Assembly: GCA_011364925.1 (NCBI GenBank)
Contig: RDOA01000003.1
Location: 64,001 to 128,000, forward strand
Length of the DNA: 64,000 nt
DNA from: Promethearchaeota archaeon
GTDB taxonomy: Archaea; Asgardarchaeota; Lokiarchaeia; Sigyniarchaeales; SOKP01
Reading direction: 5' to 3'
Position 1 is the first letter of the stretch. Each line of letters begins with the position of its first letter. A program made the position numbers and the translations under genes. The notes under the pieces were generated by a model. It made no database searches. It had not been told where the DNA came from and was given only the letters and a program-made list of their open reading frames with translations. Shown piece by piece: positions 30,202 through 46,857 of the stretch.

Positions 30202-30765
30202 TTAGGTAGGCTTTCGTTTCCAAATTTTCATCGATTCAAAAATGAATACACAGGTGCAATAACTTATAAAAAACAAAAAAAGTAGGCTAGCTGGATTTGT
30301 TATAAACACATCACCATACAGGATTGCAAGATATGCGTACAATATTACACCTAAAATATTAATAACTAAGTATAAAGAATATCGGGGAATCATAAGAGGT
30401 CCTATGCGAAAGTAAAAACCTAATATGCCTTTTTTAACTCCTTCCTTTACAAAATATTTACCATCTTTATCTTTTTTTGAAATAATCCCTGCTTTCATTA
30501 ATTTATCTAATTGATATGCTACCGTTCCAGAAGAGACCATCTTTAATGCCTTCTGAATTTCCCTTACTCCCGCGCTATGATGAGTCAAAATGTACCAATA
30601 GATTTGTAGAGTCTTTCCTTGTAATATTTTTTTATGATTATTCTTTAGAGCTTCTGCTTCTACCTCAAGATCTGACATCGCAAGGAAGGTTTCATTGTTT
30701 GATTTAGATGATATAGGTGTTATTGCAGGACTTTCGTTTATATACTTTCGTCTTCTTGGGGTCAT
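30202..30765 (-). CDS. Membrane-anchored winged-helix transcription regulator (wHTH + 2 TM)
   Basis: TLQIYWYIL...GVREIQKAL..SSGTVAYQLDKL..AGII followed by two hydrophobic helices; 4-bp overlap with the upstream gene. Confidence 0.75.
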   Translation of the reverse strand: MTPRRRKYINESPAITPISSKSNNETFLAMSDLEVEAEALKNNHKKILQGKTLQIYWYILTHHSAGVREIQKALKMVSSGTVAYQLDKLMKAGIISKKDKDGKYFVKEGVKKGILGFYFRIGPLMIPRYSLYLVINILGVILYAYLAILYGDVFITNPASLLFLFFISYCTCVFIFESMKIWKRKPT

Positions 30766-32375
30766 AAAAACTCTATGTCCTCTTGAGGTTTTCTAAATCT
30801 TTTACGATTTTGATATATTATAAAAACAGAAACTGCAATGATTGTACTACTAATAACGAGAATAGTTGGCAAGTAATTTAACGATGGTGTAATGGGTGGG
30901 AGTGTACAATCATTATCTTCGATTACATTTCCTTGACAATTAAATTCAACGATGCATTCATCATTTCCTATTAAACTATTACCCGAAATAGTGTTATAAC
31001 TACTAGTGTAAAGAACTAATCCCCACTGGTTGTAATTTGCGGTGTTTCCCGAAATGGTGTTATAAATGCTTTCGATTAGAATTATCCCACATTCTATATT
31101 ATTAAGTGCGGTGTTTCCTGAGAGGGTGTTATAACTGCAACCTACTAAACATATCCCACTCCAATTATTGTTATTTACAATGTTTCCTGAAATGATATTA
31201 TTTTTACTATTTTCAAAACAAATCCCATGAAACCTTTTAATGTTATTCGCCGTGTTTTCTGAAATAGTATTATTGTCACAATTGATTAAATATAGCCCAC
31301 CATAATAGTAATTGTAATTAGCAACGTTTCCCGAAATAGTATTATTATTGCTATCCCATATCATTAACCCCGAGCAATTATTAGTATTTGCGGCATTTTC
31401 TGAAATATAATTGTTATTACTATTGTCTAAGAATATCCCATAATAGGTGTTGTTATTCACGGTGTTTCCCGAAATAACACTATTATTACAATAATGTAAT
31501 GAAATACCAATAGTAGTATAAGATATGTTCAAGTTTGATATTAATGACCCACTGCAGTTGACTAAAATCAATTGTCCAGCATTTGGAAAATCGGTTGATC
31601 TTAGATTTTCTTGGTTAGTACAATAATATACTGGTTTGCCATTCACTAGATTTGTTGTATCTATCTCAGTTGAAAGTAATATCTCAAGATTTCCAATTAT
31701 TCTAAACCCACATTCATACATTAAATTTTCCGTAAAAACATTATTAAAACCTTTAGTTTGGTCCGATAGCCATCCCTGCAACGCAATTCCAGAATAGGTA
31801 TTACTTATCGTGTTTCCTGAAATGGTATTGTTACCACTACCGTATAAAGCTATCCCATAACCATAATTATCTTTTACGATATTTCCTGAAATGATGCTAT
31901 TATTACAATTCCATAAACGGATTCCCTTATTGTTATTATTGGAACAATTATTGTTAAGTAGTTGTCCATTATTTACATCAACTAATTTTATTCCAGCATC
32001 GTCAAAACCTTCTCCAGAATTAAAAAGAGTACAATTTTCAATTCGAAAATAAACTTCGGAATTATCAATCCAGATGCAACTTCCCGAATTTTCACCATCT
32101 ATTTCTAAATCTTCAATAATATAAGGATCAGAATAAATCCCATTCCCCGTACATATTCCATCTTCTTTAGCAACCGTCCAATTAATACTTGGATTGTCAT
32201 CATCTATATGAATTTTTCCTGATACTGCTGGGGTTTTTGGTTTTTCGTTGTCAGAATCAATTACCTCATTGTCATCAGGAATAAAACTTGAATTAATATT
32301 AATCATTCCCACTAAAGCGAAAATGATTCCTAAAGTGATTAAAACTGTTATTATTAATTTTGCATTTGATTTCAT
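30762..32375 (-). CDS. NosD-type parallel beta-helix surface protein, membrane-anchored
   Basis: GNG..SDPYIIEDL, NLVNGKPVYY, repeated NTISGN..N.N..GI, C-terminal TM. Confidence 0.85.
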   Translation of the reverse strand: MKSNAKLIITVLITLGIIFALVGMININSSFIPDDNEVIDSDNEKPKTPAVSGKIHIDDDNPSINWTVAKEDGICTGNGIYSDPYIIEDLEIDGENSGSCIWIDNSEVYFRIENCTLFNSGEGFDDAGIKLVDVNNGQLLNNNCSNNNNKGIRLWNCNNSIISGNIVKDNYGYGIALYGSGNNTISGNTISNTYSGIALQGWLSDQTKGFNNVFTENLMYECGFRIIGNLEILLSTEIDTTNLVNGKPVYYCTNQENLRSTDFPNAGQLILVNCSGSLISNLNISYTTIGISLHYCNNSVISGNTVNNNTYYGIFLDNSNNNYISENAANTNNCSGLMIWDSNNNTISGNVANYNYYYGGLYLINCDNNTISENTANNIKRFHGICFENSKNNIISGNIVNNNNWSGICLVGCSYNTLSGNTALNNIECGIILIESIYNTISGNTANYNQWGLVLYTSSYNTISGNSLIGNDECIVEFNCQGNVIEDNDCTLPPITPSLNYLPTILVISSTIIAVSVFIIYQNRKRFRKPQEDIEFL

Positions 32376-33439: not shown

Positions 33440-33940
33440 CTATTCAGGTATGATTATTGATGTATCTTCCTTAATTCTATCAAGGACAATTTGAGTCTTT
33501 ACTTCTTCCACTCCCGGAAGGTTTCGCAACTGTTTAATCAGTTCCATTGAATCTTCGTGATCCATACATTTAGCCATAACAAACAGAGGATATTCACCAG
33601 TTACTATGTATCCATATTTTATTTTTTCCATTTTTTCAATTTTACTCTTAATATCCTCAATTGGTTGCTTAGAGTTCACTCTCAAGGAAGCCATAACCAT
33701 TTCCCGATATCCTAAATAACGACAATCTATTAAAGCAACGTATTTTTTAATTAAAAGTTCTTCTAATTTTTGGACTCGAGCTCTAATAGCTGTCGCACTT
33801 TTAGGTTTGTCTAAGCCTAACTTTTCTGACACTTTTTCGGCAATCTTATTTATAGTTATTTTTCCATCCTGTTGTAATAAGTCTAGGATCTCTCTATCAA
33901 TCTCATCGATTTCAATTGGTTTAAAATTATCAGCTGCCAT
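33440..33940 (-). CDS. Lrp/AsnC family transcription regulator, divergent from the tusA-hdr operon
   Basis: IDEIDREILDLLQQDGK HTH; VTGEYPL; LPGVEEVKTQIVL. Confidence 0.9.
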   Translation of the reverse strand: MAADNFKPIEIDEIDREILDLLQQDGKITINKIAEKVSEKLGLDKPKSATAIRARVQKLEELLIKKYVALIDCRYLGYREMVMASLRVNSKQPIEDIKSKIEKMEKIKYGYIVTGEYPLFVMAKCMDHEDSMELIKQLRNLPGVEEVKTQIVLDRIKEDTSIIIPE

Positions 33941-34180
33941 TATAAAACTCCCAATTTTTGTTATTCAATAATAAAATAGTGCACACTTATTTATAACTTT
34001 TTTCACTATGATCTGTGATCAACTTAGTTTTTTTTTGTGAATTTTGTGGGATTTATAAATAGAAAAACTATTATTTAAATAGTGGGAAGCATTTTTGATC
34101 CACAAGGAATATCAAATTTAAACTTTATTTGGTATTAAAACTGAAAAAAATAGAAAAAATATCTAGAGAAGTTGAAAAAA

Positions 34181-34405
34181 ATGGCAGATAAAACACTTAA
34201 TGCAATAGGTAAAAAATGCCCTATGCCTGTTCTCATGACCAAAAAAGAGCTAAAAAACATGAGTTCAGGACAAACTCTTGAATTGGTTGTCGATGATAAA
34301 GGAGCATTAAAAGATGTTCCGGCACTTATCAGTAAAACCGGTGATTCAATACTCGAGACGAAAGAAGGCGAAAACCAGATAACATTTATGATTAAAAAGG
34401 CTTAA
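34181..34405 (+). CDS. tusA: Sulfurtransferase TusA/SirA family, copy 1
   Basis: LNAIGKKCPMPVL (CPxP), LELVVDD...DVP. Confidence 0.9.
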   Translation: MADKTLNAIGKKCPMPVLMTKKELKNMSSGQTLELVVDDKGALKDVPALISKTGDSILETKEGENQITFMIKKA

Positions 34406-34434
34406 ACCAGAGATTAAAACACGCGTGATGTACA

Positions 34435-34803
34435 ATGACAACCTATTCTTTTTTTATTAGTACGGAACCTTACAAATTTGAAGCAAGCGATTCGTTAATC
34501 GAAATGGGTAAAGCTTTAATAAAGAAGGGACACAGTATAAAGGGTTTATTTTTCTTTGGAACTGGCGTATATAACATCAAGGGCGATATTAGTAGTGGAA
34601 GCTCAATAAGAAACATTCCAAAAAAGCTTGAAGAGTTTGCGACTGAGAACAAGATTCCAGTGGTTGGATGTTCCACTTGGGTAAGTTTGACTGGGTTAAA
34701 AGAACCAGAGTTTATTGAAGGGGCAACGGAAGAGGGATTAGGCGACTTTTCAAATTGGGCTGTAGAATCAGACAAATTAATTGTATTTGGAGCGGGGTGT
34801 TAA
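34435..34803 (+). CDS. dsrE: DsrE/TusD-like sulfur relay subunit
   Basis: KGHSIKGLFFFGTGVYN, active-site-position Cys (VGCSTW), GLGDF...SDKLIVF. Confidence 0.75.
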   Translation: MTTYSFFISTEPYKFEASDSLIEMGKALIKKGHSIKGLFFFGTGVYNIKGDISSGSSIRNIPKKLEEFATENKIPVVGCSTWVSLTGLKEPEFIEGATEEGLGDFSNWAVESDKLIVFGAGC

Positions 34804-35177
34804 AAATAACAATAGAATCTGTAGTAATAATAACTGACCAAGGACCGATTGGTAAAAATTCAGCTTTAGAAGCAGTCCGTATTGGTTCCGGATTCGTAGC
34901 ACTCGGTGAATTTGTGGACTGCAAAATGGTATTTACAGGAGACGCAGTTTACTTGCTCAATAAAAACGCAAAACCAGAAGCGGTTGGAATGGATCCATAC
35001 GACGAGGTTATGGAAATTGCAGACTTATCAGACTTAGAATTATACGTTCTTGATCAAGCGTTACAAGACGCTGGAATGAGTGCTGAAGATTTAGTTGAGT
35101 ACGAAAATTTGAGCATAATTACATACGACGAACTAGTCGATTTAATTGAAAATGCAACTACGAGTTTTAGATTTTAA
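34797..35177 (+). CDS. dsrF: DsrF/TusC-like subunit (start uncertain, ~34797-34806)
   Basis: GPIGKNSALEAVR, VFTGDAVYLL, C-terminal LVDLIE...F. Confidence 0.7.
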   Translation: MLKITIESVVIITDQGPIGKNSALEAVRIGSGFVALGEFVDCKMVFTGDAVYLLNKNAKPEAVGMDPYDEVMEIADLSDLELYVLDQALQDAGMSAEDLVEYENLSIITYDELVDLIENATTSFRF

Positions 35178-35193
35178 ACGAGGAGAATAAATA

Positions 35194-35535
35194 ATGGCTG
35201 AAAACAGAAAAATATTGTATTTATTTGGATATAGTGAAATAACAGGAACACATTTGAAGCGGTTATTACCCATTTTAAAAGCACAGATTGCCAAAGGGTC
35301 TCAAATTGGACTCGTGTTGATTCACGACGGCGTAATCGGGATTAACAAAAAAGGGAATATCCCCGAGATGATGGGCGAACTACTTAGCTTGAATGTAGCA
35401 ATTTACGCAATGATACCTGATTTGCAAGCTCGAGGGATTGCTCAAGAAAGTATTCACGACAAGGTTAAGCCGATTGGATATGACGAACTAATCGATATTA
35501 TTGATGTAACACCAAAAATAATATCTTGGATGTAA
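35194..35535 (+). CDS. dsrH: DsrH/TusB-like subunit
   Basis: LVLIHDGV, DLQARG, IGYDELIDII...ISW. Confidence 0.75.
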   Translation: MAENRKILYLFGYSEITGTHLKRLLPILKAQIAKGSQIGLVLIHDGVIGINKKGNIPEMMGELLSLNVAIYAMIPDLQARGIAQESIHDKVKPIGYDELIDIIDVTPKIISWM

Positions 35536-35649
35536 AAAGTCCAAGAAATCAAAATAGATTTTTTGAAAATTAAGGTAATAAAATATTACAAAATTTTGGA
35601 ATATAAAATAATTAGAAATTAAAAAAACAAAAAAAAGAAGTGAAAAAAT

Positions 35650-36066
35650 ATGGGAGAAACTATTAACTTTATAGTTAAGGACAAGTCATTCGAAAAATTC
35701 GCAATGATGATGCTCCTAGGTACCACAGCAGACGCGATGGACACTAAAACCAACTTTTTCTTTACATTTTGGGGTTTAAAATTATTAACTAAGAAATTTA
35801 AACCGAAAGTCGCTGGTATGCCTTTTCCAATGAAGGGAATGGCTGCAGGCATGTTCAAGAAAAAGATGGCTACATTTGGAATCGAAGATCCATGGGGTAT
35901 GATTAAAGACGCTGTCGAGAATGGAAACATGAAATTATTTCCATGCCAAATGACAATGGATTTAATGGGGATTAAGAGAGAAGATCTGATTGACATTGTT
36001 GAAGAGCCTGTGGGTGCCGCAACTTTCTTAGAGATGAGTGAAGGTGGAAAAATAGTCTCACTATAA
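35650..36066 (+). CDS. DsrE2-like (DsrE/DsrF/DrsH-like family) sulfurtransferase
   Basis: FFTFWGL, PCQMTMDLMGI, GAATFLE. Confidence 0.85.
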   Translation: MGETINFIVKDKSFEKFAMMMLLGTTADAMDTKTNFFFTFWGLKLLTKKFKPKVAGMPFPMKGMAAGMFKKKMATFGIEDPWGMIKDAVENGNMKLFPCQMTMDLMGIKREDLIDIVEEPVGAATFLEMSEGGKIVSL

Positions 36067-36119
36067 AATATACATTAAAATTTTTTTTTTTTTTCAAGAT
36101 AATAAATTGGTGAATGTAA

Positions 36120-36680
36120 ATGTCTGATGTAGAAGAACAACAAAAAAATAGAGAATTCAAGACGGATGATGATTTCGATACTGAATTCTTTAAGAGAATA
36201 GAAAATAGGTCAAACATTATGAAATGTATCCAATGTGGAACGTGTACCGCGAGTTGTGAAAGTGGTAGATGGACTGCATTAAAAACTCGTTCGATTGTAC
36301 GAAAAGTTGTTCTCGGAGATTTATCAGTACTGGATGACCCGGATATTTGGCTCTGTACGACCTGTTATCAGTGTTATGAGCGATGTCCACGGGATGTAAA
36401 ACCAACAGATGTTATTATGGAATTGCGAAATTACGCAACCAAACGAGGAAATATCTCACCTAACCATAGAGCTGTTGTTGGTTACTTAAAAAATTTTGGC
36501 CACGCAGTACCGATAAATGATGAAGTAAGAAAAAGACGAGTCGAATTAGGTTTAGAAGAATTACCTCCAACTGCTTTTAAATACAAGCAAGAAGGAGATG
36601 ATAAAGACTTAAAAAAGATTGAAAAATATATGTTTGATTTACCTCCCGTTAAGGAGGAAAAAAAAGGAGAGGAGAAATAA
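36120..36680 (+). CDS. hdrC: Heterodisulfide reductase subunit C
   Basis: CIQCGTCTASC, IWLCTTCYQCYERCPRDV, GHAVP. Confidence 0.92.
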   Translation: MSDVEEQQKNREFKTDDDFDTEFFKRIENRSNIMKCIQCGTCTASCESGRWTALKTRSIVRKVVLGDLSVLDDPDIWLCTTCYQCYERCPRDVKPTDVIMELRNYATKRGNISPNHRAVVGYLKNFGHAVPINDEVRKRRVELGLEELPPTAFKYKQEGDDKDLKKIEKYMFDLPPVKEEKKGEEK

Positions 36681-36683
36681 ATA

Positions 36684-37598
36684 ATGGTTAAAGAACATAC
36701 ATTTGCTTTTTTCCTCGGATGTATCATGCCCAATAGATATCCTGCGATTGAGAAAGCAACTAAATTCGTGATGGAGAAGCTTGGATATGAAATATTGGAA
36801 ATGGAGAGGGCTACTTGCTGTCCAGCTCCAGGAGTATTCCGTTCATTCAATAAATTTGATTGGATGGTTGCGGGAGCTAGAAATTTATGCATTGCTGAAC
36901 AATTAGATGCTGATATTCTTACTGTTTGTAATGGATGTTTTGGTACACTCCAAGAAATTAACAAACATCTTAAAGAAAACGAGGAACATCGAATACAAGT
37001 AAATGAGAAACTGAAACTCCTCGGAGACTACGAATTCAAGGGGATAATTGACGTTCGTCATGTTGCCGAAGTACTTGGATACGAAGTTGGACCTTGGGGG
37101 ATAGAAGACCATATAGTAAGAAAGCTGAATTTGAAAGCTGCAATTCATTACGGGTGCCACTTTCTAAAACCAACCAGAATTAGAGAAATTGAGAGTTCAG
37201 AAGGACCTACAATAATCGAAGATTTCGTTGAAGCGTTAGGAATAGAGTCCGTTCGGTTCAAAGAGCAACTTACTTGCTGTGGAGCGGGTGGTGGCGTAAA
37301 AGCTTATTCTGGCGATGCGAGCATGACCATATTCGGGGAGAAAATGAAAAATATTGATGAAGTTAAACCTGATATTATATTAGATATCTGTCCATTCTGT
37401 CACTTACAGTTTGAGACAGGTCAAGATTATCTCAACAAAAATAAGGAATGTAATTACGATTATCCAGTGTTCCATCTTTCGCAAGTTTTAGCATATTGTA
37501 TGGGAATGGATGTAGACTTTATTGGCCTTCAGTATCAAATGATGGGCAGGGACTTTATTTTTGGTGGAGAAGATGTTAAAAAAGAGGAGGCAATTTAA
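36684..37598 (+). CDS. hdrB: Heterodisulfide reductase subunit B
   Basis: FFLGCIMPNRYP, TCCPAPG, CNGC, HYGCH, CCGAGGG, CPFCHLQ. Confidence 0.93.
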   Translation: MVKEHTFAFFLGCIMPNRYPAIEKATKFVMEKLGYEILEMERATCCPAPGVFRSFNKFDWMVAGARNLCIAEQLDADILTVCNGCFGTLQEINKHLKENEEHRIQVNEKLKLLGDYEFKGIIDVRHVAEVLGYEVGPWGIEDHIVRKLNLKAAIHYGCHFLKPTRIREIESSEGPTIIEDFVEALGIESVRFKEQLTCCGAGGGVKAYSGDASMTIFGEKMKNIDEVKPDIILDICPFCHLQFETGQDYLNKNKECNYDYPVFHLSQVLAYCMGMDVDFIGLQYQMMGRDFIFGGEDVKKEEAI

Positions 37599-39638
37599 AT
37601 GACTGTTGAAGAAAAAGTCAAAAAAACTGACGAAATTAAGGGCGGGGCAGATTCTAAAGAAGCAGAAGAAGAGCCTAGAATTGGTGTTTTTATTTGCCAC
37701 TGTGGACACAATATTGCTGGTACGGTTGATGTTGCCAAAGTGGCAGAATACGCCAAAACTTTACCTAACGTGGTTAAGGCCGAACATTATATGTTCATGT
37801 GTAGCAAACCGGGAGTTCAAATGCTTAAAGATTCGATTGAAGAACTTGGAGTTAATAGAACAGTTGTGGCTTCATGCTCAAAAAATCAACATGGGAGAAC
37901 CTTTGCTAACGCGATCCAAGAAGAGGGATTAAATAAACATAGACACCAACAAGTTAACATAAGAGAATTTAATAGTTGGGTTCATCAAAAAGAGAAAGAT
38001 AAAGCCACAGAAAAAGCGAAAAAGTTAGTAGAAGCGGGCGTTAACCGAGCAAGGAAATTAGAGGATGTTGAAACTCGCAGAATTGCGACTACTAAAGCTG
38101 CTCTGGTTATTGGTGCTGGAATTGCGGGACTTCGCGCTAGTTATGATTTAGCTGAATTAGGGATACCAGTTTACTTAATAGAGAGGTTATCTACAATTGG
38201 AGGGCACATGACTCAATTAAATAAAACGTTCCCGACACTTGAATGCCCTCAGTGTTCCATAAGTCCATTAACTAATGGAGTTGCGAACCATCCGCTAGTA
38301 GAACTTTATACAAACGCTCAGATTAAAAATGTTGGTGGCTCTATGGGGAATTTCGAAGTGGAAGTCGAGATTAAACCTCGATATGTTAAGGATAATTGTA
38401 CTTCATGCGGTGAATGTTCAGCTCATTGTCCTGTTGAAGTGCCAAGCGAGTGGGATAGTGGAATGTCTATACGTAAAGCGATATATAAGGCTTATCCACA
38501 AGCGATACCTGCGACTTTTGTCAGAGATAAGAAGAACTGTATTGAATGCAACACCTGTGTTAACATATGTCCGGTCAAAGCCGTTGATTTTTCGATGGAG
38601 ACTGAGACCAAAACGTTCAAAGTCGGCTCTATTGTTGTAGCTGCGGGTTATGACGAATACGATCCTTCAGAAATCGAACCTTATCACTACGGACAAAAAG
38701 GATTCGAAGATGTCATTACACAGTTGAAATTGGAACGAATGTTAGCTCCAGGATCACTTACAAACAGTCAAGTTTTAAGACCTTCAGATGCAAAAATTCC
38801 GAAGAGTGTTGTAATGATCCAGTGTGTTGGGAGTCGAAATGACCAAGTTGGAAACGAATATTGCACAGGAGTCTGTTGTAAGTTTGCGATTAAGAACGCA
38901 AGAATTGTTAAAGAGATGTATCCTGACACTGACGTGACTATTTGTTATATTGATGTGCGAACTCCAGGGCTCAACTTTGAGGAGTTATATAAATCGGCTC
39001 AGGAAGTTGGAGTGAGATTTATCAGAGGGCGCCCATCAGAGATTGTGAGAGATCCGATATCTGGGAATCTAAAGGTAATCGTTGAAGATACTTTAAGTAT
39101 GACTCCATTACAGTTGAAAGCTGACATGGTGGTATTAAGTGCTGCGATGGTTCCACCTGAAGGAATTGGACCACTTGGGTCAAAACTTCAAGTATTAAGG
39201 TCAAAAGAAGGATTTTTGAAGGAATTTCATATCAAAATGAACCCTACATTAAGTAGCAAAGGTGGAATTTTTATAGCTGGTGCGATTCAAGGTCCTAAGG
39301 ATATTTCTGAATCGGTGGCTCAAGCAGGGAATGCCGCTGCGATCGCTGCTGCACCGTTGGTAAAAGGTTATATCGAAAAAGAAATGCTTATTCCTTCAGT
39401 TGATCTTGACCTATGCGTTAGATGTGGATTATGCAAAACTGTTTGCGCTCCAGCTGCAATACAAATTAACGACGATGGAACGCCGATGGTGAACGAAGTC
39501 GCTTGCAAGTCATGTGGTATGTGTATGCCTGCATGTCCTACAGGAGCAATACAATTATTAAACTTTAGCGATAAACAACTATTAGATGAAATTATACCAA
39601 TAGCAGGCGGAGGTGCTGTATGCGAAGATGAGCTGTGA
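37599..39638 (+). CDS. hdrA: Heterodisulfide reductase subunit A (FAD, 4Fe-4S)
   Basis: IGVFICHCG.NIAG, LVIGAGIAG, KTFPT.EC..C, inserted ferredoxin, QCVGSR, GPKDI, C-terminal ferredoxin. Confidence 0.95.
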   Translation: MTVEEKVKKTDEIKGGADSKEAEEEPRIGVFICHCGHNIAGTVDVAKVAEYAKTLPNVVKAEHYMFMCSKPGVQMLKDSIEELGVNRTVVASCSKNQHGRTFANAIQEEGLNKHRHQQVNIREFNSWVHQKEKDKATEKAKKLVEAGVNRARKLEDVETRRIATTKAALVIGAGIAGLRASYDLAELGIPVYLIERLSTIGGHMTQLNKTFPTLECPQCSISPLTNGVANHPLVELYTNAQIKNVGGSMGNFEVEVEIKPRYVKDNCTSCGECSAHCPVEVPSEWDSGMSIRKAIYKAYPQAIPATFVRDKKNCIECNTCVNICPVKAVDFSMETETKTFKVGSIVVAAGYDEYDPSEIEPYHYGQKGFEDVITQLKLERMLAPGSLTNSQVLRPSDAKIPKSVVMIQCVGSRNDQVGNEYCTGVCCKFAIKNARIVKEMYPDTDVTICYIDVRTPGLNFEELYKSAQEVGVRFIRGRPSEIVRDPISGNLKVIVEDTLSMTPLQLKADMVVLSAAMVPPEGIGPLGSKLQVLRSKEGFLKEFHIKMNPTLSSKGGIFIAGAIQGPKDISESVAQAGNAAAIAAAPLVKGYIEKEMLIPSVDLDLCVRCGLCKTVCAPAAIQINDDGTPMVNEVACKSCGMCMPACPTGAIQLLNFSDKQLLDEIIPIAGGGAVCEDEL

Positions 39639-40077
39639 AGATATAGAGCCAGAAGTAATGGAAAAGATCCAAGATATTGTTGTTTTTATGTGTAACGAAT
39701 GTGGACAAGGATCGGCAAATACTGCTGGTGTAGCAAGAATGGCGTATAATCCCGCAATCCGAATCGTTCGAGTCCAATGCACGGGTCAAGTAGGACCTAT
39801 TCAAATAATGGATGCTTTGAATAACGGTGCTGATGCGGTTGCTTGCGTTGGTTGTTGTCTTGGAGCGTGTCATTTCTTTAACGGAAATATTTTATCGATG
39901 CATAGAATCAAACTGCTGAAGAAAGTATTTAAAGAATTAGGGTATAGCGATCAGTTTGTTAATCAATACACATCACGAGCCGCGGAAGGAGAAACAGCTG
40001 TAGGAGATTTTGAGGATTTAGTGATACGATTGTCTAATGCAATTAGAGAGGAGGGGACAATAAAAGATGGATGTTAG
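39628..40077 (+). CDS. mvhD: MvhD/VhuD 2Fe-2S subunit (start probably ATG 39628)
   Basis: FMCNEC, IRIVRVQCTGQV, GADAV..VGC...ACHF.NGN. Confidence 0.85.
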   Translation: MSCEDIEPEVMEKIQDIVVFMCNECGQGSANTAGVARMAYNPAIRIVRVQCTGQVGPIQIMDALNNGADAVACVGCCLGACHFFNGNILSMHRIKLLKKVFKELGYSDQFVNQYTSRAAEGETAVGDFEDLVIRLSNAIREEGTIKDGC

Positions 40078-41302
40078 AATTTTTCAATTTAATGGCTGCA
40101 ATAAATGTTTCAACGAGACGATTCTCCTTAACGGTGAATCAAAATACAAGATTGAATTCATTGAAGATCCGAAGAATTGGAAAGAGATGAAAACTGATGT
40201 TTCTGTTATAACAGGATACCTTTTACCTGAAGATAAAGATACTTTAGAAAAAATTAAATCAAATTCGAAACGAGTCGTTGGTTACGGAAATTGTACTACG
40301 ATGGGAGGAATATTTGCTTTAGCTAATCAAAGAGGCTATGAAGTATCCCCATTGAGTAGTTTCATCGAAGAAACAGAGAAAGTAAATGGTTGTCTGGGAG
40401 AAATTGAAGAATTGAGTGTAGCGATTAACAGTGAGGCGGCTCCTAAATTACAGAATTTATGTGCGGTTTGCGCAAGAGAAACGACTTGCGATTACTTAGA
40501 AAGTGTTCATCGTCAAATAGAATTAGAAGACGAGACAACATGTTTTAACGATCTCGGATATCTTTGTAATGGTTTTGTTGCTAAAGAATGTAAAGAGCGA
40601 TGTATCGATTATAACGCACCTTGTAGAGGATGTAAACCAATTATAGATCGTTCAGGGATTAGAATGTTAGGAATGTTCGGTACTCTAATGGGCAACATTG
40701 AGGTTGCGACAGAGCATTCGGAATTAGGCGCTACTGATAAGCTTGCAGATCGAGACGATGATATTACAGATAGTTTACCTGATGTTTTAGGCAATTTCTT
40801 TAGATTTACTCTATCGACTTCAGGACTTCCCAGAGGTAGAATTCCTTCGTCAGGAAATATACTTAACGATGTCTTTACTGGAAGATTAATAGAAGAGTTA
40901 CCTCTGATTTCTGGGTTATTAGGTGGGAATCGTTCAATTTCCCTAACGCTAAAAATTATAGAAACATACGAGACCGCGAATAGCATTGAAGTAAGTGAAC
41001 AAACAAAAAAATATCGTAAAGAATTGTTAGATTTGGAAAGCCAGTTGCAGGAAGCTATTAAAAGCAAAGATCCTAAGCAGTATAAAAAGATTACAGACGA
41101 AATCAGAAAAATAGGCGGAAATATGAATTTATCAAACGTATATTTCGGAGGATTCAAAGCTCAGATCGACGATAAAGACAATTTTGAAGATTATAAAGCC
41201 CACGTTTTTGATGTGGTTGAAGGAACCTATAAGAATGGTTCAGTAGAATTTACGATTGATCCAATCGGTATTGTAAAAGAAATAAAAATTAAAGAGGGAT
41301 AA
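40067..41302 (+). CDS. MvhG/FrhG-like (NiFe-hydrogenase small-subunit-like) Fe-S protein with C-terminal extension
   Basis: GCNKC, GYGNCTTMGGI, GC, LCAVC, CF...G.LC.G, PCRGC, D..G.FFRFTL. Confidence 0.75.
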   Translation: MDVRIFQFNGCNKCFNETILLNGESKYKIEFIEDPKNWKEMKTDVSVITGYLLPEDKDTLEKIKSNSKRVVGYGNCTTMGGIFALANQRGYEVSPLSSFIEETEKVNGCLGEIEELSVAINSEAAPKLQNLCAVCARETTCDYLESVHRQIELEDETTCFNDLGYLCNGFVAKECKERCIDYNAPCRGCKPIIDRSGIRMLGMFGTLMGNIEVATEHSELGATDKLADRDDDITDSLPDVLGNFFRFTLSTSGLPRGRIPSSGNILNDVFTGRLIEELPLISGLLGGNRSISLTLKIIETYETANSIEVSEQTKKYRKELLDLESQLQEAIKSKDPKQYKKITDEIRKIGGNMNLSNVYFGGFKAQIDDKDNFEDYKAHVFDVVEGTYKNGSVEFTIDPIGIVKEIKIKEG

Positions 41303-41304
41303 AC

Positions 41305-43767
41305 ATGAGTTTCGAATTATTAAGGAGCGAAATTATTGACGCAGGTTTATGTCAAGGTTGCGGTTTATGTGCTGGTTCGTGCAAACACATTAATATGGAA
41401 ATTGCCAGGCCGGTATTAAAAGACTATTGCATCCTTGAAAGAGATGGTGAAGATTGTGGAAAATGTTACCAATCTTGTCCACAAGTGATCCAGAAAAAGT
41501 TTAAGGAAAAACAACCATTAGCCATATATTCGTTAAGAACAAAAAATCCTGAAATTTTAGCTAAAGCTTCTAATGGAGGATTTGTCACAACTATCGCTAA
41601 AGAACTGTTAGAAAGTGAATCTCTGAAAGAGATTGTGATGGTTCAAGAAGATGACGAAAAACCAAAAGCAGAGATAGTAACGAATCCCGATGAAGTTATT
41701 AAAAAAGCAGGAGTCGTCTATGGTCGTTCTGGGGTACTTGAGCGTTTAATAGATGTTACTGGAGAAACCTTTGACCCTATTGGAATAGTGGGAGTACCCT
41801 GTGAAATGAGAGGAGCTGCGGAGATCGAAGAAGAAATGAATAGAGAAATCTTGAAGATCGGGCTTTTCTGTAGTTCCCAAATGCGAACAGCTGAGACTGA
41901 TAAAGGTTTAGTCTGTTCTCCATGCTGTAACGGTTGCCCCTCAGGTGTTAATGCTCAAGGGTACGTGTCATTAATTCGTCAGGGAAAATACCAAGAAGCC
42001 GTGGATTTAATACGAGAAAATAATCCCTTACCGTCCATCTGTGGAAGAATTTGTACAAACGAATGTGAATACGGATGCACATTAATTGGAGACGATCATC
42101 CTGTTGCAATCAGAGAACTAAAAAAATTCGTAACAGAATGGGAAATGGAACATGGGAAGAAGAAGAAGAAAAAGGTTGCTAAAAAGAATGGTAAAAAAGT
42201 GGCTATAATTGGAGCGGGACCAGCGGGATTAACCGCTGCGCATTACTTAGCAAATAGAGGATATTCACCAACTATTTTTGAAAAGACAGATCAAACAGGA
42301 GGTATGCTTCGATTTGGAGTCCCACAATTCAGATTACCTAATTATGTATTAGATTACGATGTAGAATCAATAACAGATGCAGGTGTTGAGCTCGTTCTTA
42401 ACAAACCTTTAGGACCTGATATGACGATCAATGATTTAAAAAAGGAAGGTTTTGAAGCAATTTTTATTGCAACTGGTCAGTATAAACCAAGAACTTTGCA
42501 CTTAGAAGGAGAAGACTTACCTAATGTTTACGTAGCTATTAACTTCCTTATGGACAGGAAGTATAGATATTGGGAAAATAAAGAAGAATTTAATGGTAAA
42601 ACAATTGGCATCATTGGGGGAGGTCCGGTTGCTGTAGATGTTGCTCAAACTGCGCTGAGACTTGGAGCGGAAAAAGTTCACCTCGTTGACATCATGAACG
42701 AAAAAGAACTCGAATTAGTCCTAAAAGATATCCCTGAAAATGAATACGAATATATGAAGTATCATTTTGCCACATCCACTTCTAAAATAACGCAAAACAA
42801 AGACGGAAAGTTAGTTTTGAACTGCTACAATATCGAATGGGGTGCTCCTGACAAGACGGGTAGACGACCTCTAAATAAAGTTGAGGGTTCTGATTACGAG
42901 ATACCCATTGATGTTATTATAATGGCAGTAGGACAAGCTGTTGACTTTGATTTAATCGATGTAGCAACCGAAAATAAGATTGAAAAAGAGCGAAATAGGA
43001 TCAAGATAAATCCGGTAACGTTTGAAACAAGTATTCCCGGAGTGTTTGCTGGAGGTGATATCGTTTCAAACTCTAAAGCTGTCGCGATTGCTGGTATTGC
43101 TCATGGGAAAGAAGCTGCGATTTCAATAGACAGATATTTGAACGGTGAGGATTTAGAAGAAGGCAGAAATTATCGAAGTCAAATGTTTTTTACTGGTCCT
43201 CGTAAACCACCTAAAGATTACTCTTTAAAACCAGAAAATTTAGAGGATGCTACTGAAGAAATACAGTGGACATTCGATGAAATTGATGAAATGTTCAACG
43301 AAGATATGGCTTTAAGGGAGGCAAGGAGATGTTTGAGTTGTAACCACTTCTGTTCCCATTGTCAAGATTTTCCTGCCATATATTCTGACGTTACGGCAGG
43401 TGAAGTTGGTTCAGAAAAAGGTTATACAACGGTAGTTGCTTGGACAGAAAAAGGTAAAGAACTTGTTGATAACGCGATCGCGAAGGGATTATTTGACCAA
43501 GGAAAGGTTAACGAAGGAGAGTTAAAAACGGCAATAAACCTTAAATCGAAACGAGAACTTATGAATTTCGAAAAAACTCCACGAACTCAGGTATTAGACT
43601 ACGTAAAAATCCAAGGACCAAGTACTATTAGCGATATAGCTCGAAATACTGGACTTGAGCAGAAAAAGGTCAGGTATGAAGCACTTCGATTAGTTCAGTT
43701 AATGGAATTTGAAATGAAAGCAGATCCTGATATGACCGAACCGCTGTTTTCTATTGTATGTGATTAA
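41305..43767 (+). CDS. FrhB/FdhB-like F420-binding protein with an inserted GltD/NfnB-like NAD(P)H:flavin oxidoreductase and C-terminal wHTH
   Basis: FrhB N-part (CQGCGLC, NGGFVT, VGVPC, IGLFC); GltD (CPSGVNAQGY, NPLPSICGRIC, GAGPAG, GGGPVAVDVA, GVFAGGD, EARRCLSC); FrhB C-part (C..CQDF...SDV.AG.VGS..GYTTVV.WT.KG). Confidence 0.8.
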   Translation: MSFELLRSEIIDAGLCQGCGLCAGSCKHINMEIARPVLKDYCILERDGEDCGKCYQSCPQVIQKKFKEKQPLAIYSLRTKNPEILAKASNGGFVTTIAKELLESESLKEIVMVQEDDEKPKAEIVTNPDEVIKKAGVVYGRSGVLERLIDVTGETFDPIGIVGVPCEMRGAAEIEEEMNREILKIGLFCSSQMRTAETDKGLVCSPCCNGCPSGVNAQGYVSLIRQGKYQEAVDLIRENNPLPSICGRICTNECEYGCTLIGDDHPVAIRELKKFVTEWEMEHGKKKKKKVAKKNGKKVAIIGAGPAGLTAAHYLANRGYSPTIFEKTDQTGGMLRFGVPQFRLPNYVLDYDVESITDAGVELVLNKPLGPDMTINDLKKEGFEAIFIATGQYKPRTLHLEGEDLPNVYVAINFLMDRKYRYWENKEEFNGKTIGIIGGGPVAVDVAQTALRLGAEKVHLVDIMNEKELELVLKDIPENEYEYMKYHFATSTSKITQNKDGKLVLNCYNIEWGAPDKTGRRPLNKVEGSDYEIPIDVIIMAVGQAVDFDLIDVATENKIEKERNRIKINPVTFETSIPGVFAGGDIVSNSKAVAIAGIAHGKEAAISIDRYLNGEDLEEGRNYRSQMFFTGPRKPPKDYSLKPENLEDATEEIQWTFDEIDEMFNEDMALREARRCLSCNHFCSHCQDFPAIYSDVTAGEVGSEKGYTTVVAWTEKGKELVDNAIAKGLFDQGKVNEGELKTAINLKSKRELMNFEKTPRTQVLDYVKIQGPSTISDIARNTGLEQKKVRYEALRLVQLMEFEMKADPDMTEPLFSIVCD

Positions 43768-43802
43768 ATTTAAACCAAAATAAAATCAAGGAGAGAAAAA
43801 AT

Positions 43803-44042
43803 ATGAATTTTGACCAAGAATTAAATGTCTGCGGATTAGTCTGTCCCGTTCCAGCGCTTAAAACCAAAAAACAATTAATGAAGATGCGCCCTGGAACCGT
43901 GTTAAAGGTAATAACAGACTATAAACCTGCAAGTGAATCTGTTCCAAGAGATTTAGCTAAACAAACTAAGCACAAACACTTAGGAACAGAATTTCTCGAA
44001 GACGAAGAACAGTGGTATATGTATTTTGAAGCTGTAAAATAG
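43803..44042 (+). CDS. tusA: Sulfurtransferase TusA/SirA family, copy 2
   Basis: LNVCGLVCPVPALKTKK (CPxP), LKVITD...SVP. Confidence 0.88.
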   Translation: MNFDQELNVCGLVCPVPALKTKKQLMKMRPGTVLKVITDYKPASESVPRDLAKQTKHKHLGTEFLEDEEQWYMYFEAVK

Positions 44043-44258
44043 GTTCACAGAAAGTTAAAATTATAATATTTTATAATTCTTTTTTTATTAATATTGCTAT
44101 AGAATTCACCATGTAATGTAGTGTATTATGAGTTTTAGATTGGAACCATATTAACGCTCTAACTTTTATGAATTTCAATCTCAGATGTAAATATTGATAT
44201 TATTAACATCGTTATATGGATTAATAGAGAATCATCAGAAACTATTAATTTGAAAAAC

Positions 44259-45851
44259 ATGGCAAAACCTAATATTATCTTAATATTAAATGACGACATG
44301 GGATATTCAGATTTAGGTTGCTATGGAGGAGAAGTTCAAACTCCTAATTTAGATAATTTAGCAAAAAACGGGATTAGATTTACTAATTTCTATAATACGG
44401 CTCGGTGTTCTCCTTCACGGGCTTCGCTATTGACAGGACTACATCCTCATCAGACGGGTATAGGAGTTTTGGTTAACAATGATGGTCCAGAAGGATATGC
44501 CGGTTCGTTAAACAATAAATGTGTTACTATCGCAGAAGTCTTGAGAGAAGATGGATACAAGACATATGTAAGTGGTAAATGGCACGTCTCGAATTCTCCT
44601 TACAAAGAAGCTGATAGCTGGCCAACTAAACGCGGATTTGACCATCATTATGGCATCCTCCAAGGAGCTACTGATTATTTCTATCCTATTAAGTTAAGAA
44701 GAGATGGAAAAAACATTGAAGAGGAAGCGAGAAACGATCCTAATTATTATCTAACAGATGCCATTAGCGACCAAGCCGTAGCTTTCCTTAAGGAGCACCA
44801 TCAAAATTTTCCAGAAGACCCATACTTCCTATATATTGCGTACACTGCCCCTCATTGGCCGCTTCACGCTAAAGAATCGGATATCAAAAAATATGAAGGA
44901 CGGTTTATCGTAGGATGGGACATTCTTCGCGAAGAAAGACTCCAAAGAATGAAAAAATTAGGTCTTTGTGATGAAAATTTAAAGCTTTCTGAACGCGATC
45001 CCACCCAACGAGCATGGGATTTAACTAAAAACAAAGAGTGGGAAGCTCGTAGAATGGCTGTATATACTGCTCAAATTGACAATATGGACCAAGGCATAGG
45101 TCGAATTATTGCGGAAGTTAAAAAACAAAATCAGTTGGAGAATACTGTGATCGTTTTTCTTTCGGATAATGGTGGTTGTGCGGAACCTATGGGTCGTGCC
45201 ATGAAAAAATTGACAAATTTAGATGAGTGGAAGAGTGGTCGTATAAAAACCAAGGATGGTCGTGATATTCTTTATGGGAATAGGAAGTCCGTTATTCCAG
45301 GACCCGCTAACACTTACGCAAGCTATGGTACAGCTTGGGCAAATCTTTCAAATACCCCTTTCCGGAAGTATAAACATTGGGTACATGAAGGTGGAATTGC
45401 CACTCCATTAATTATTCATTGGCCTAATGGCATAAAGTTTAAAGGGAAGATCTGTCATCAACCAGGTCAACTCCCCGATATCATGGCGACAATTATTGAA
45501 ATTACACATTCTCCTTATCCTGAGAAATACAATGGAGACAAAATTCTACCTTTGGAAGGACAAAGCTTAGCTTTAAGCTTTTCTAGTACCACCTCTATTG
45601 AACGAACACTATTTTTTGAGCACGAAGGGAACGCAGCGGTAATACAAGGAAACTGGAAATTAGTTAAAGAATATCCCTATTCATGGGAATTGTATGATAG
45701 AGAATCTGACCGAACTGAACTAGATAATATTATCTCGAGATATCCCGTAAAAGCTCGAGAATTGGAATTAGCATTTCACCAATGGGCTAAACGCTGTGGC
45801 GTTATTCCATGGGATTTATACCTTACAAATAACAGATTTATCCAATATTAA
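44259..45851 (+). CDS. Arylsulfatase (Cys-type, formylglycine-dependent)
   Basis: KPNIILILNDDMGYSD, CSPSRASLLTG, GKWH, APHWPL, SDNG, HEGG. Confidence 0.92.
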   Translation: MAKPNIILILNDDMGYSDLGCYGGEVQTPNLDNLAKNGIRFTNFYNTARCSPSRASLLTGLHPHQTGIGVLVNNDGPEGYAGSLNNKCVTIAEVLREDGYKTYVSGKWHVSNSPYKEADSWPTKRGFDHHYGILQGATDYFYPIKLRRDGKNIEEEARNDPNYYLTDAISDQAVAFLKEHHQNFPEDPYFLYIAYTAPHWPLHAKESDIKKYEGRFIVGWDILREERLQRMKKLGLCDENLKLSERDPTQRAWDLTKNKEWEARRMAVYTAQIDNMDQGIGRIIAEVKKQNQLENTVIVFLSDNGGCAEPMGRAMKKLTNLDEWKSGRIKTKDGRDILYGNRKSVIPGPANTYASYGTAWANLSNTPFRKYKHWVHEGGIATPLIIHWPNGIKFKGKICHQPGQLPDIMATIIEITHSPYPEKYNGDKILPLEGQSLALSFSSTTSIERTLFFEHEGNAAVIQGNWKLVKEYPYSWELYDRESDRTELDNIISRYPVKARELELAFHQWAKRCGVIPWDLYLTNNRFIQY

Positions 45852-45957
45852 TTAGGTACTAAAATTGTAAATAACACTAAATTCATTATTTATTCACATT
45901 CTTAAATTATAAATTCAAATGTAATTTTATAAAATTAATAGCGCTAATGTGATAAAC

Positions 45958-46812
45958 ATGAATTTTGAGACCATTAAGTTTGAATTGCAAGAAAACGGAA
46001 TTGGAATACTGACGCTTAATCGTCCTGAGAAACTAAACGCTATGTCCTTTCAAATGATTAAGGATTTACACGCGTTATTCGACTCTTTAATGGTAAATTT
46101 AGACTGTCGCGTTCTTATCTTAAAAGCAGAAGGGAGAGCGTTTTGTGCTGGATTAGATTTGAAAGAATCGACAATTTTACAATCGAAAAAGAAACCTCCA
46201 GAGTTAAAAGAGAAGTTTCATTTTCTAAACGCTCCCGATAAAGATATAATAAAGGCAAAATTGTACGCTCAATGGTATACCAGCAACATTATTGTGAAAA
46301 TGCGTAAAATTAATCAACCAATCATTGCCTTAGTTCAAGGGGCAGCATCTGGAGCCGGATTCGCTTTCTCTTTAGCAGCAGACATTAGAATTGCCAGTAA
46401 AAACGCAAGGTTCAATAACGCATTTATCAATGTTGGGTTTTCCGGCTCAGACTTAGGATCTAGCTATTATCTTCCGCGACTTATAGGGATGTCAAGAGCG
46501 GCAGAGATTCTATACACGGGAAGATTTGTAGACGCTTATGAAGCTGAAAGGATTGGGCTCGTATTGAATGTCGTAGAAGAAGCGGAATTGCTCGATACTG
46601 CAATTAAATTAGCAGAAAACATGTTACATAAAAGCCCATTAGGGTTGCGTATGACTAAGCAAACGCTCAATTTATCCCTTGATTCTCCAAGCCTAGAAAC
46701 CATTCTTCAGTTAGAAAACCGAGCACAGATGCTTTGCTCTGCGTCTGATGATATTATGGAAGGAATTCAATCTTTTTTTGAAAAAAGAGAGCCAAAATAT
46801 CCGTTAACCTGA
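45958..46812 (+). CDS. Enoyl-CoA hydratase/isomerase family, copy 1
   Basis: LNRPEKLNA, AFCAGLDL, QPIIALVQG, F.EKREP. Confidence 0.9.
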   Translation: MNFETIKFELQENGIGILTLNRPEKLNAMSFQMIKDLHALFDSLMVNLDCRVLILKAEGRAFCAGLDLKESTILQSKKKPPELKEKFHFLNAPDKDIIKAKLYAQWYTSNIIVKMRKINQPIIALVQGAASGAGFAFSLAADIRIASKNARFNNAFINVGFSGSDLGSSYYLPRLIGMSRAAEILYTGRFVDAYEAERIGLVLNVVEEAELLDTAIKLAENMLHKSPLGLRMTKQTLNLSLDSPSLETILQLENRAQMLCSASDDIMEGIQSFFEKREPKYPLT

Positions 46813-46857
46813 AAATCTAGATTATAGTAAAGAAATAGAAAAATAAAAGTGAGAAAG

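Follow-up and report, generated by a model that had tools for sequence, protein, structure and literature searches.

What does heterodisulfide reductase (HdrABC) reduce outside the methanogens, and which donor feeds it? The substrate of many HdrABC enzymes in non-methanogenic archaea and bacteria has been a question of years, and Asgard genomes are rich in HdrABC. Here, we analysed one place where Hdr travels with its own candidate substrates, in the Promethearchaeota archaeon genome GCA_011364925.1 (Lokiarchaeia; Sigyniarchaeales), which is rated 100% complete. The window is the 64,000-nucleotide (nt) stretch at positions 64,001 to 128,000 of contig RDOA01000003.1 (forward strand), and window positions are counted from its first letter. 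At window 33440-44042 there are 12 co-oriented plus-strand genes in the order tusA1-dsrE-dsrF-dsrH-dsrE2-hdrC-hdrB-hdrA-mvhD-mvhG'-frhB::gltD-tusA2, together with a divergent lrp. The gene content and domain architecture of this cluster, the loss of its nickel site, the linkage of the hdr genes to sulfur-carrier genes, the cysteines of the carriers and a genome in which no methanogen substrate pathway was found point to an H2-independent, bifurcating-type HdrABC, which would draw on a dead-hydrogenase donor arm and reduce sulfane or disulfide sulfur supplied by the carrier relay. Our confidence in this reading is evenly divided.

The genes were called from the listing of open reading frames (ORFs), Pfam domains and NCBIfam models with curated cut-offs (protein lengths in amino acids, aa):

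33440..33940, minus strand: Lrp/AsnC-family regulator, divergent from the cluster (Pfam AsnC_trans_reg and HTH_AsnC)
34172..34405, plus strand: TusA1 sulfur carrier, likely ATG start at 34181 (PF01206, 79 bits)
34435..34803, plus strand: DsrE/TusD-like subunit (PF02635; TIGR03012 48.6 bits, under the cut-off of 89)
34797..35177, plus strand: DsrF/TusC-like subunit, GTG start, overlapping dsrE by 7 nt (PF02635; TIGR03010 under cut-off)
35194..35535, plus strand: DsrH/TusB-like subunit with zero cysteines (PF04077; TIGR03011 47.7 bits against a cut-off of 49.2)
35650..36066, plus strand: DsrE2-type carrier, COG2210 type (PF13686, 81 bits)
36067..36119, plus strand: dsrE2-hdrC spacer with a T14 run, candidate archaeal terminator/attenuator at the seam between two modules
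36120..36680, plus strand: HdrC (TIGR03290 181.7 bits, over the cut-off of 160)
36684..37598, plus strand: HdrB, catalytic subunit with two CCG motifs (PF02754 twice; TIGR03288 362 bits, over the cut-off of 345)
37599..39638, plus strand: HdrA, 679 aa, full-length bifurcating type (NF040770 HdrA2 model, 741.8 bits, model positions 1-637)
39613..40077, plus strand: MvhD [2Fe-2S] connector (PF02662, 107.5 bits)
40067..41302, plus strand: MvhG', 411 aa, small subunit plus large-subunit vestige (PF01058; Pfam Oxidored_q6)
40835-41299, plus strand: vestige domain of MvhG' (residues ~257-411), a Cys-free, ~150-residue piece of a [NiFe] large subunit
41305..43767, plus strand: FrhB::GltD fusion, 820 aa (FrhB_FdhB_N 75-146, Fer4_20 190-284, Pyr_redox_2 297-596, FrhB_FdhB_C 666-733)
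43803..44042, plus strand: TusA2, carrier tied to the Hdr module (PF01206, 62.6 bits)

Intergenic distances within the cluster range from -26 to +114 nt. A preliminary description of this DNA had drawn the same map, from tusA to tusA2 with a divergent lrp, and ORFs, Pfam and NCBIfam placed every named gene at the coordinates and in the order that it gave. It had also held that the cluster lacks mvhA, dsrAB, dsrC and a lipoate-binding protein gene; the ORF, Pfam and NCBIfam survey of the window cluster likewise found no mvhA, dsrAB, dsrC or GcvH/LbpA gene. An FdhA-like ORF and FlxA, FlxB or FlxC ORFs were not found in the cluster by the Pfam survey.

Are the carriers and the Hdr together by chance? 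Relatives were sought with the 411-aa MvhG', the product of the most distinctive gene of the cluster; approximately 80 loci were fetched and all of their genes were mapped. The contig scan used two Lokiarchaeia-biased peptide patterns, and its result covers Asgard taxa only. All 12 co-oriented genes were present in 39 species-level loci, in the same order in nearly all of them and with the divergent lrp in most, and the shorter gene patterns among the approximately 80 loci were nearly all due to contig ends. Within the genus, 24 of 41 genomes have the mvhG' gene and some complete ones lack it; beyond the genus, it was detected in several others of the same order. The cluster was found in Promethearchaeum syntrophicum MK-D1 (DSAG12_01139-01151), Candidatus Lokiarchaeum ossiferum and Ca. 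Sigynarchaeum, all three of them among the 39 complete loci, and also in Ca. Harpocratesius, with frhB reduced. Three distant relatives, in which MvhG' identity is just 34-41%, have other gene orders: hdrCBA-mvhD-mvhG'-frhB-tusA2-dsrEFH in a second Asgard family (f31), dsrE-dsrE-hdrCBA-mvhD-mvhG'-frhB-tusA2 in a JGI metagenome contig (L113), and lrp, tusA2 (minus strand) and then dsrE-hdrCBA-mvhD-mvhG'-frhB in an ENA contig (L112). Gene order varies, yet TusA2-type and DsrE-type genes stay with this Hdr, a pattern that is the classical mark of genes coupled in function. We conclude that the Hdr and the sulfur-carrier genes have a functional link and are not together by chance. The coupling claimed in the preliminary description was borne out in this way, and the conservation that it had proposed to check was found in the 39 full loci, the second Asgard family and the two metagenome contigs.

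Expression in MK-D1 was considered as evidence for co-expression and rejected: the cluster genes have 182-348 reads per kilobase per million (RPKM) and the other table genes inspected mostly ~150-430, so that the values are uninformative. Many contigs of metagenome-assembled genomes (e.g. G229:C80, G248:C6, G249:C155 and G234:C153) start 1-4 kb upstream of mvhG', around hdrB/hdrA; such starts may be assembly breaks from the many HdrA paralogues, which make the cluster look incomplete in drafts.

Which donor feeds the enzyme? The N-terminal ~255 residues of MvhG' are a [NiFe]-hydrogenase small subunit (PF01058), whose top Foldseek match was MvhG of the Mvh-Hdr complex (5ODI_E). Eleven cysteines are invariant and one is near-invariant in 16 sequences down to 35% identity; these 12 suffice for three [4Fe-4S] clusters, and the Fe-S wire is intact. 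The C-terminal ~155 residues contain no cysteine and are strongly conserved. This domain was folded alone with a mean predicted local distance difference test (pLDDT) score of 85.7, and its structural matches, both from the whole-protein model and from the domain folded alone, were only [NiFe] large subunits and their complex-I relatives NuoD. The best match was FrhA (6QGT_A, Z 13.3, 148/155 residues aligned at 2.5 A), and MvhA (5ODC_F) reached Z 11.7; the first fifteen matches had Z 9.6-13.3, followed by an abrupt fall to Z 5.2 and unrelated helical bundles. Foldseek on the C-terminal domain also placed FrhA first. When the domain was compared by hhalign with the genome's own large subunit, the N-terminal nickel-binding motif RICGIC stood opposite LLGGNR; the score is weak (probability 20%), but the residues pair in the same register as in the structural match. 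Foldseek on the whole MvhG' model revealed the small-subunit part only, and the stump was seen through a wide structural search and the domain folded alone.

MvhG' thus joins a small subunit to about a third of a large subunit that no longer has its metal ligands. There are no [NiFe] ligand cysteines, since the sole large-subunit-like part is the 155-residue Cys-free domain. FrhB is encoded by the next gene, and the donor arm therefore looks like an Frh/Mvh hydrogenase with a decayed catalytic site. The description of the cluster as being without a hydrogenase stands in the functional sense, as the nickel-binding cysteines are gone; it does not stand for ancestry, because the MvhG-like ORF carries a vestigial large-subunit domain. 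The MvhG' family is tiny: a search of 1.84 billion representative proteins gave 20 clusters at E<=1e-30, and many of these are fragments.

The FrhB fold of the next protein is interrupted at residues ~182-655 by a complete GltD/NfnB-type module (Fer4_20 and Pyr_redox_2). This module matches the NfnB-type chains 4YLF_B and 5JCA_L at E 1e-69 to 1e-73, covering residues 182-615, and FrhB/Fsr PDB chains cover both ends of the fusion. By its domains, the inserted module should be of the NAD(P)H-FAD-2x[4Fe-4S] type (FAD, flavin adenine dinucleotide). The distant variants f31, L112 and L113 have a plain FrhB of 345-389 aa aligning to residues 1-207 and 683-808, indicating that the GltD insertion is a Lokiarchaeial addition to an ancestral FrhB-fed system. 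In the F420 biosynthesis pathway, CofH and CofD scored over their cut-offs in the genome, which makes F420H2 a plausible donor. F420H2 entering through FrhB, with NAD(P)H added by the inserted module, is a plausible input, and by the sequence evidence the electron input is not H2. The electron partner anticipated earlier, NAD(P)H or F420H2, agrees with the FrhB and GltD/NfnB-like domains, the F420 genes and the lost nickel ligands.

Two further observations were made on this protein. The C-terminal ~55 residues of FrhB::GltD (window 43600-43767) form a winged-helix-like tail, which is kept in the plain FrhB of the distant variants (matches to ~808). In Ca. Harpocratesius repetitus (L101:11283-11696, plus strand), frhB::gltD is down to short pieces matching residues 1-80 and 749-815, which leaves the ferredoxin-like N-terminus and the winged-helix-like tail; that cluster is otherwise intact, with ~3 kb inserted between dsrH and dsrE2.

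What kind of Hdr receives these electrons? HdrB and HdrC exceed the curated cut-offs of the NCBIfam equivalog models for the enzyme acting on coenzyme B (CoB) and coenzyme M (CoM). HdrB aligns end to end with methanogen HdrB (5ODC_B, E 5e-89) and has two complete CCG motifs, with all ten cysteines invariant in 65 orthologues. HdrA is the long form, with Fer4 domains (ferredoxin inserts) at residues 260-328 and 598-653. These models, the alignment with 5ODC_B, the long HdrA and the single hdrB and hdrC confirmed that this HdrABC-MvhD is methanogen-like and not like the sulfur-oxidising sHdr.

The carriers that accompany it, apart from DsrH, keep their cysteines. The CPxP cysteine of TusA1 (Cys16) is present in 45/45 orthologues, Cys56 of DsrF in 47/48 and Cys99 of DsrE2, a single-copy gene in the genome, in 54/54. 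DsrE Cys79 is invariant (47/47) and corresponds to active-site Cys78 of DsrE/TusD. DsrH has no conserved cysteine column across 50 orthologues. DsrE, DsrF and DsrH all score under the TusD/C/B equivalog cut-offs (NCBIfam), which makes them a divergent archaeal clade. In TusA2, Cys14 is present in 65/65 orthologues. Median identity over the 39 complete loci is highest for TusA2 (89.9%), against 85-87.5% for HdrC, HdrB, MvhD and HdrA; TusA1 evolves fastest (59.7%), with DsrH at 60.2%. The tusA2 gene adjoins frhB in the Lokiarchaeial loci, f31 and L113, and in L112 it is divergent and upstream of dsrE-hdrC. From its top conservation and its position beside frhB, TusA2 was taken as the carrier working closest with the enzyme, and is likely to be its proximal partner. 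TusA2 as a two-cysteine analogue of DsrC was rejected: its extra Cys10 occurs in only 58/65 orthologues and is absent in MK-D1, Sigynarchaeum, f31 and L113, so that a two-cysteine mechanism like that of DsrC cannot hold for TusA2 in general.

Contig C50 carries another dsrE-dsrF-dsrH set, with 39-49% identity to that of the window, beside a GNAT acetyltransferase gene (L115:6524-7625, minus strand). It was rejected as an Hdr-linked set; the nearby CCG protein belongs to a GlcD/FAD_binding_4-type dehydrogenase pair.

How could these parts work together? In the scheme that we propose, F420H2 would enter at FrhB and, in Lokiarchaeia, NAD(P)H would enter at the inserted GltD/NfnB-like module. Electrons would pass through the small-subunit Fe-S clusters and the MvhD [2Fe-2S] cluster to the HdrA flavin, and the nickel-free large-subunit stump would stabilise the small-subunit Fe-S wire. 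From the flavin, a high-potential branch would lead to the noncubane clusters of HdrBC and a low-potential branch to the ferredoxin domains of HdrA. Sulfane or disulfide sulfur would be delivered by TusA1, DsrEFH, DsrE2 and then TusA2, presented as a TusA2 persulfide, as a mixed polysulfide or after transfer to a small thiol, and released as H2S. In Lokiarchaeia, which ferment amino acids, zero-valent or organic sulfane sulfur would then serve as an optional acceptor for electrons from F420H2 and NAD(P)H. That the enzyme works in this direction, bifurcates, acts on this substrate and plays this physiological role is what we infer from the genes. Carrier-borne sulfur is a testable candidate substrate, and the direct taking of a protein-bound persulfide by HdrB is a candidate only. 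The scheme in its most complete version, in which TusA2-borne sulfane sulfur replaces the methanogen heterodisulfide and a machine derived from a nickel-killed hydrogenase uses F420H2 or NAD(P)H to reduce zero-valent sulfur and ferredoxin together (bifurcation/confurcation), is possible, but we hold it to be doubtful.

Several points weigh against this scheme. A T-run of at least seven is present in 47 of 50 orthologous dsrE2-hdrC spacers, including the T14 here. Archaeal oligo-T tracts are intrinsic terminators. The conserved tract suggests that the carriers and the Hdr block are probably transcribed separately, or with attenuation between them. Of the single tusA-to-tusA operon assumed in the preliminary description, the close spacing and common orientation of the genes remain, and the oligo-T run in the dsrE2-hdrC spacer speaks against it. 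This seam is also the site of lrp in MK-D1 and L. ossiferum, where, as in Harpocratesius, lrp is co-oriented between dsrE2 and hdrC (it is divergent in most other loci), and it is the left edge of an Hdr-block deletion in a genome of the same genus (G005). In G005, lrp is divergent from tusA1-dsrEFH-dsrE2, which is directly followed by a tusA2 remnant (residues 41-79), the Hdr block having been excised. Another genome (G217) has the carriers only, and G008 and G256 have only tusA1-dsrE2. Some genomes thus retain tusA1-dsrEFH-dsrE2 or tusA1-dsrE2 after loss of the Hdr block, indicating that the carriers are also used without this Hdr. These natural deletions and the patchy presence within the genus also indicate that the system is accessory. 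The YeeE/TsuA sulfur importer (PF04143) was not found in the genome. At ~-270 mV, the S0/H2S couple is only a little higher than F420 or NAD(P)H (-320 to -360 mV), so that bifurcation to ferredoxin would be marginal. Moreover, the TusA and DsrE cysteines are not on a flexible arm like that of DsrC. The remaining point is the shape of the HdrB pocket, and it is treated below with the alternative to which it leads.

The scar in G005 (L121:10812-10925, minus strand) consists of the non-coding tusA2 remnant within ~60 nt of dsrE2; 7.7 kb of hdrCBA-mvhD-mvhG'-frhB::gltD were lost.

Could HdrB act on a small molecule? In this alternative, it would reduce a small-molecule thiol disulfide or persulfide, either a CoM/CoB-like anionic thiol pair or a CoA- or cysteine-type persulfide; the carriers would never dock, and would load sulfur onto the small thiol or help to make the thiol cofactor. 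Six HdrB positions contact CoM/CoB in the M. thermolithotrophicus enzyme (G46, G198, F233, R14, R201 and R240), of which R14, R201 and R240 are the CoB-anchoring arginines (5ODR numbering; PMC13261682). Their counterparts here are G50, G203, F238, R18, K206 and T245. Positions G46, G198, F233 and R14 are invariant (R14 in 65/65) and R201 is replaced by K in 61/65 orthologues, so that five of the six contact positions are kept or conservatively replaced in 61-65 of the 65. By its sequence, the pocket is better suited to a small anionic substrate, bound in a narrow crevice, than to a folded carrier protein; it retains the look of a site for a small anionic thiol or (per)sulfide, and a small-molecule intermediate is therefore a serious rival. 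In the Mvh-linked HdrB paralogue of the genome, most of these positions have changed, and the equivalog scores of HdrB and HdrC and the end-to-end alignment with the methanogen enzyme point the same way. Against this, 64/65 orthologues have T, G or S in place of R240, the second of the two arginines that bind the CoB phosphate, no candidate cofactor pathway is known in Asgard archaea, and the conservation of TusA2 above that of the enzyme core, as well as its place beside frhB in most variants, is left unexplained. Genome-wide, McrA (PF02249) and ComA (PF02679) were not found (alternative CoM routes and CoB synthesis were not searched). We rate the small-thiol alternative as unlikely.

CoM-S-S-CoB itself is unlikely as the substrate, because McrA and ComA were not found. 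The methanogen arrangement with an MvhA in trans was likewise rejected. The only [NiFe] large subunit in the genome is on contig C67, and has its own small subunit and its own hdrC-hdrB. The genome checks suggested in the preliminary description, on CoM synthesis, mvhA and dsrC, gave this single large subunit elsewhere with its own partners, and neither ComA nor DsrC/TusE (PF04358) was found genome-wide. The C67 set (L117:3650-7962, plus strand) comprises an unusually long small subunit of 438 aa, a large subunit of 434 aa, hdrC and hdrB, and the contig ends just past hdrB.

If the carriers do deliver sulfur to Hdr, is the purpose biosynthetic? Thiosulfate, sulfite or cysteine would give rise to the carrier persulfides, from which Hdr might free sulfide for making Fe-S clusters, cofactors or thionucleosides. 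Such a model was drawn in a 2025 preprint for Nerearchaeum, a related Promethearchaeaceae archaeon. A NIR_SIR sulfite reductase was not found genome-wide, which favours this explanation, as does the fact that the TusA/DsrE families are classical biosynthetic carriers (sub-threshold NCBIfam TusA/TusBCD matches). However, the cluster is not essential, as its presence in 24/41 same-genus genomes and its absence from complete ones indicate, and the genome has dedicated sets elsewhere. Four other TusA genes were found, two of them with recognisable housekeeping neighbours: C23 carries a ThiF-TusA-ThiI/PP-loop set and C70 a TusA-IscS-IscU set (a DsrE-TusA pair lies on C45). TusE/DsrC was not found in the genome, the MnmA search gave only weak PP-loop matches, and the thiosulfate importer YeeE/TsuA of the Nerearchaeum model was looked for and not found. 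A full bifurcating HdrA with a large donor arm would also be a heavy apparatus for a biosynthetic trickle. We therefore consider assimilation improbable. The narrower proposal that the relay serves tRNA thiolation only was rejected, given the separate ThiF-TusA-ThiI-like and TusA-IscS-IscU sets, the lack of TusE, the weak MnmA matches and the patchy distribution in the genus.

On C70 (L116:6103-8538, minus strand), an 811-aa fusion of a CoADR-type flavoprotein, two rhodanese domains and TusA adjoins IscU, IscS and a free TusA. The fusion resembles an NADH-dependent persulfide reductase and is a candidate for a second, independent persulfide reductase in the genome.

The opposite direction, in which sulfide or carrier persulfide is oxidised, as by sHdr, or electrons from reduced ferredoxin and a thiol go together to NAD(P)+ or F420, is very improbable. 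Elsewhere, it is in sulfur oxidisers that Hdr-like complexes are known to cluster with TusA/DsrE, and Imachi et al. termed the MvhADG-HdrABC of MK-D1 electron-confurcating; but the cluster has no hdrC1B1A-hyp-C2B2 arrangement and no LbpA, its HdrA is long and not short, these archaea are strict anaerobes, and no onward route from sulfite was found. Least credible of all is that the adjacency means nothing and two independently transcribed modules, a relay and an Hdr with an unrelated substrate, merely lie together, as the conserved oligo-T run, the persistence of carriers after Hdr-block deletion and the number of CCG-domain ORFs (at least 24) and HdrA-like genes (at least 12) in the genome, most of them with no carriers alongside, would allow, since tusA2 sits inside the Hdr module (a 35-nt spacer after frhB::gltD with a Shine-Dalgarno-like AAGGAG), is under core-like constraint, and the association recurs in other gene orders at 34-41% MvhG' identity.

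The flanks of the cluster are occupied by other genes. Downstream of tusA2 (window 44250-47703, plus strand), there are a sulfatase gene (PF00884) and two enoyl-CoA hydratase genes; this neighbourhood is not kept in relatives, and the genes were rejected as parts of the system because they adjoin the cluster only in this genome. Upstream of lrp (window 30762-32375, minus strand), there is a gene for a NosD/beta-helix repeat protein, and a similar gene flanks the cluster in several related genomes.

What would sulfur reduction by such an enzyme mean, and how much of it has been proposed before? If sulfur is the acceptor, fermentative Asgard archaea would gain an electron sink besides H2 and formate transfer, which bears on the ecology of sulfidic sediments and on syntrophy models of eukaryote origin. 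If TusA2-borne sulfur does replace the heterodisulfide, Asgard archaea, including the cultured strains closest to the eukaryote ancestor, would have H2-independent, sulfur-dependent redox balancing or conservation, of direct relevance to hydrogen-sulfur syntrophy models of eukaryogenesis. The presence of the cluster in both cultured Lokiarchaeia, MK-D1 and L. ossiferum, makes this testable at the bench now. Imachi et al. list the MK-D1 hdr genes in their supplement as "Heterodisulfide reductase complexes" and are silent on the adjoining carriers (PMC7015854). A figure legend of the 2025 Nerearchaeum preprint proposes persulfides on TusA and DsrE as the substrates of an Hdr that draws its electrons from H2 via a group 3c hydrogenase. 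The idea of Hdr acting on carrier persulfides is thus not wholly new, but there the donor is H2. A search of the open literature returned no description of a nickel-free hydrogenase-derived donor arm, the FrhB::GltD insertion, the status of TusA2 or the modular seam.

How, then, does the system compare with those already known? With MvhAGD-HdrABC of methanogens (PDB 5ODC) it shares HdrC, a two-CCG HdrB, a full-length HdrA, MvhD and an MvhG-type subunit with three cluster sites. It differs in having a Cys-free stump of ~150 residues in place of MvhA, an added FrhB::GltD and attached sulfur-carrier genes, in the loss of one CoB-phosphate arginine, and in a genome where McrA and ComA were not found. 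With FrhAGB (PDB 6QGT and 4OMF), the common features are the match of the stump to FrhA (Z 13.3), the match of the N-terminal part to FrhG-type chains and frhB as the next gene; here, by contrast, there are no NiFe ligands, the large subunit is at about one third of its length and fused, and the arm is coupled to MvhD-HdrABC and not free-standing. In comparison with the TusBCD/DsrEFH relay, the DsrE cysteine is present, whereas the conserved DsrH cysteine and the DsrC/TusE acceptor are missing.

Precedents for a CCG-type subunit reducing a protein-bound tri- or disulfide, and for NADH-driven Hdr in non-methanogens, are DsrMK(JOP)-DsrC and FlxABCD-HdrABC of sulfate reducers. In a study of DsrMKJOP in anaerobic sulfate respiration, the CCG-type DsrK reportedly reduces the DsrC trisulfide. 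Unlike in DsrMK-DsrC, no DsrC/TusE was found in this genome, and the carriers are of the TusA/DsrE type without a flexible C-terminal arm. Unlike in FlxABCD-HdrABC, there are no Flx subunits in the cluster, and the Flox/Flx-type sets of MK-D1 are separate loci.

The sHdr-LbpA system (PMC11094781, PMC6067878) also has an Hdr-family enzyme genetically tied to TusA and DsrE-type sulfur transferases. That system is oxidative, with hdrC1B1A-hyp-C2B2, a short non-bifurcating HdrA, an obligatory LbpA and TusA/DsrE3 carriers, whereas here there are a single hdrC, a single hdrB, a 679-aa HdrA and no LbpA in the cluster (two GcvH-family genes lie on other contigs). Functionally, the nearest counterpart is Elp-Hdr (ElpABC-HdrABC) of Methanothermobacter, in which an FdhA without its molybdopterin domain and homologues of FdhB and MvhD pass F420H2 electrons to HdrABC (Nature 2025, PMC12350162). 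Both have a nickel-independent FdhB/FrhB-type arm, a dead Fe-S scaffold and an MvhD-type connector to the HdrA FAD. The Elp scaffold descends from FdhA, the Lokiarchaeial one from a [NiFe] hydrogenase (small subunit plus large-subunit stump); Elp also lacks a GltD insertion and sulfur carriers, and its substrate, in a methanogen, is CoM-S-S-CoB. The Lokiarchaeial arm would thus be a second, independent case, after Elp, of a metal-dependent catalytic subunit decayed to an Fe-S scaffold so that F420H2 or NAD(P)H can feed Hdr. The system combines two known things, the modular bifurcating Hdr with exchangeable donor arms and the Hdr-family enzymes coupled to sulfur carriers.

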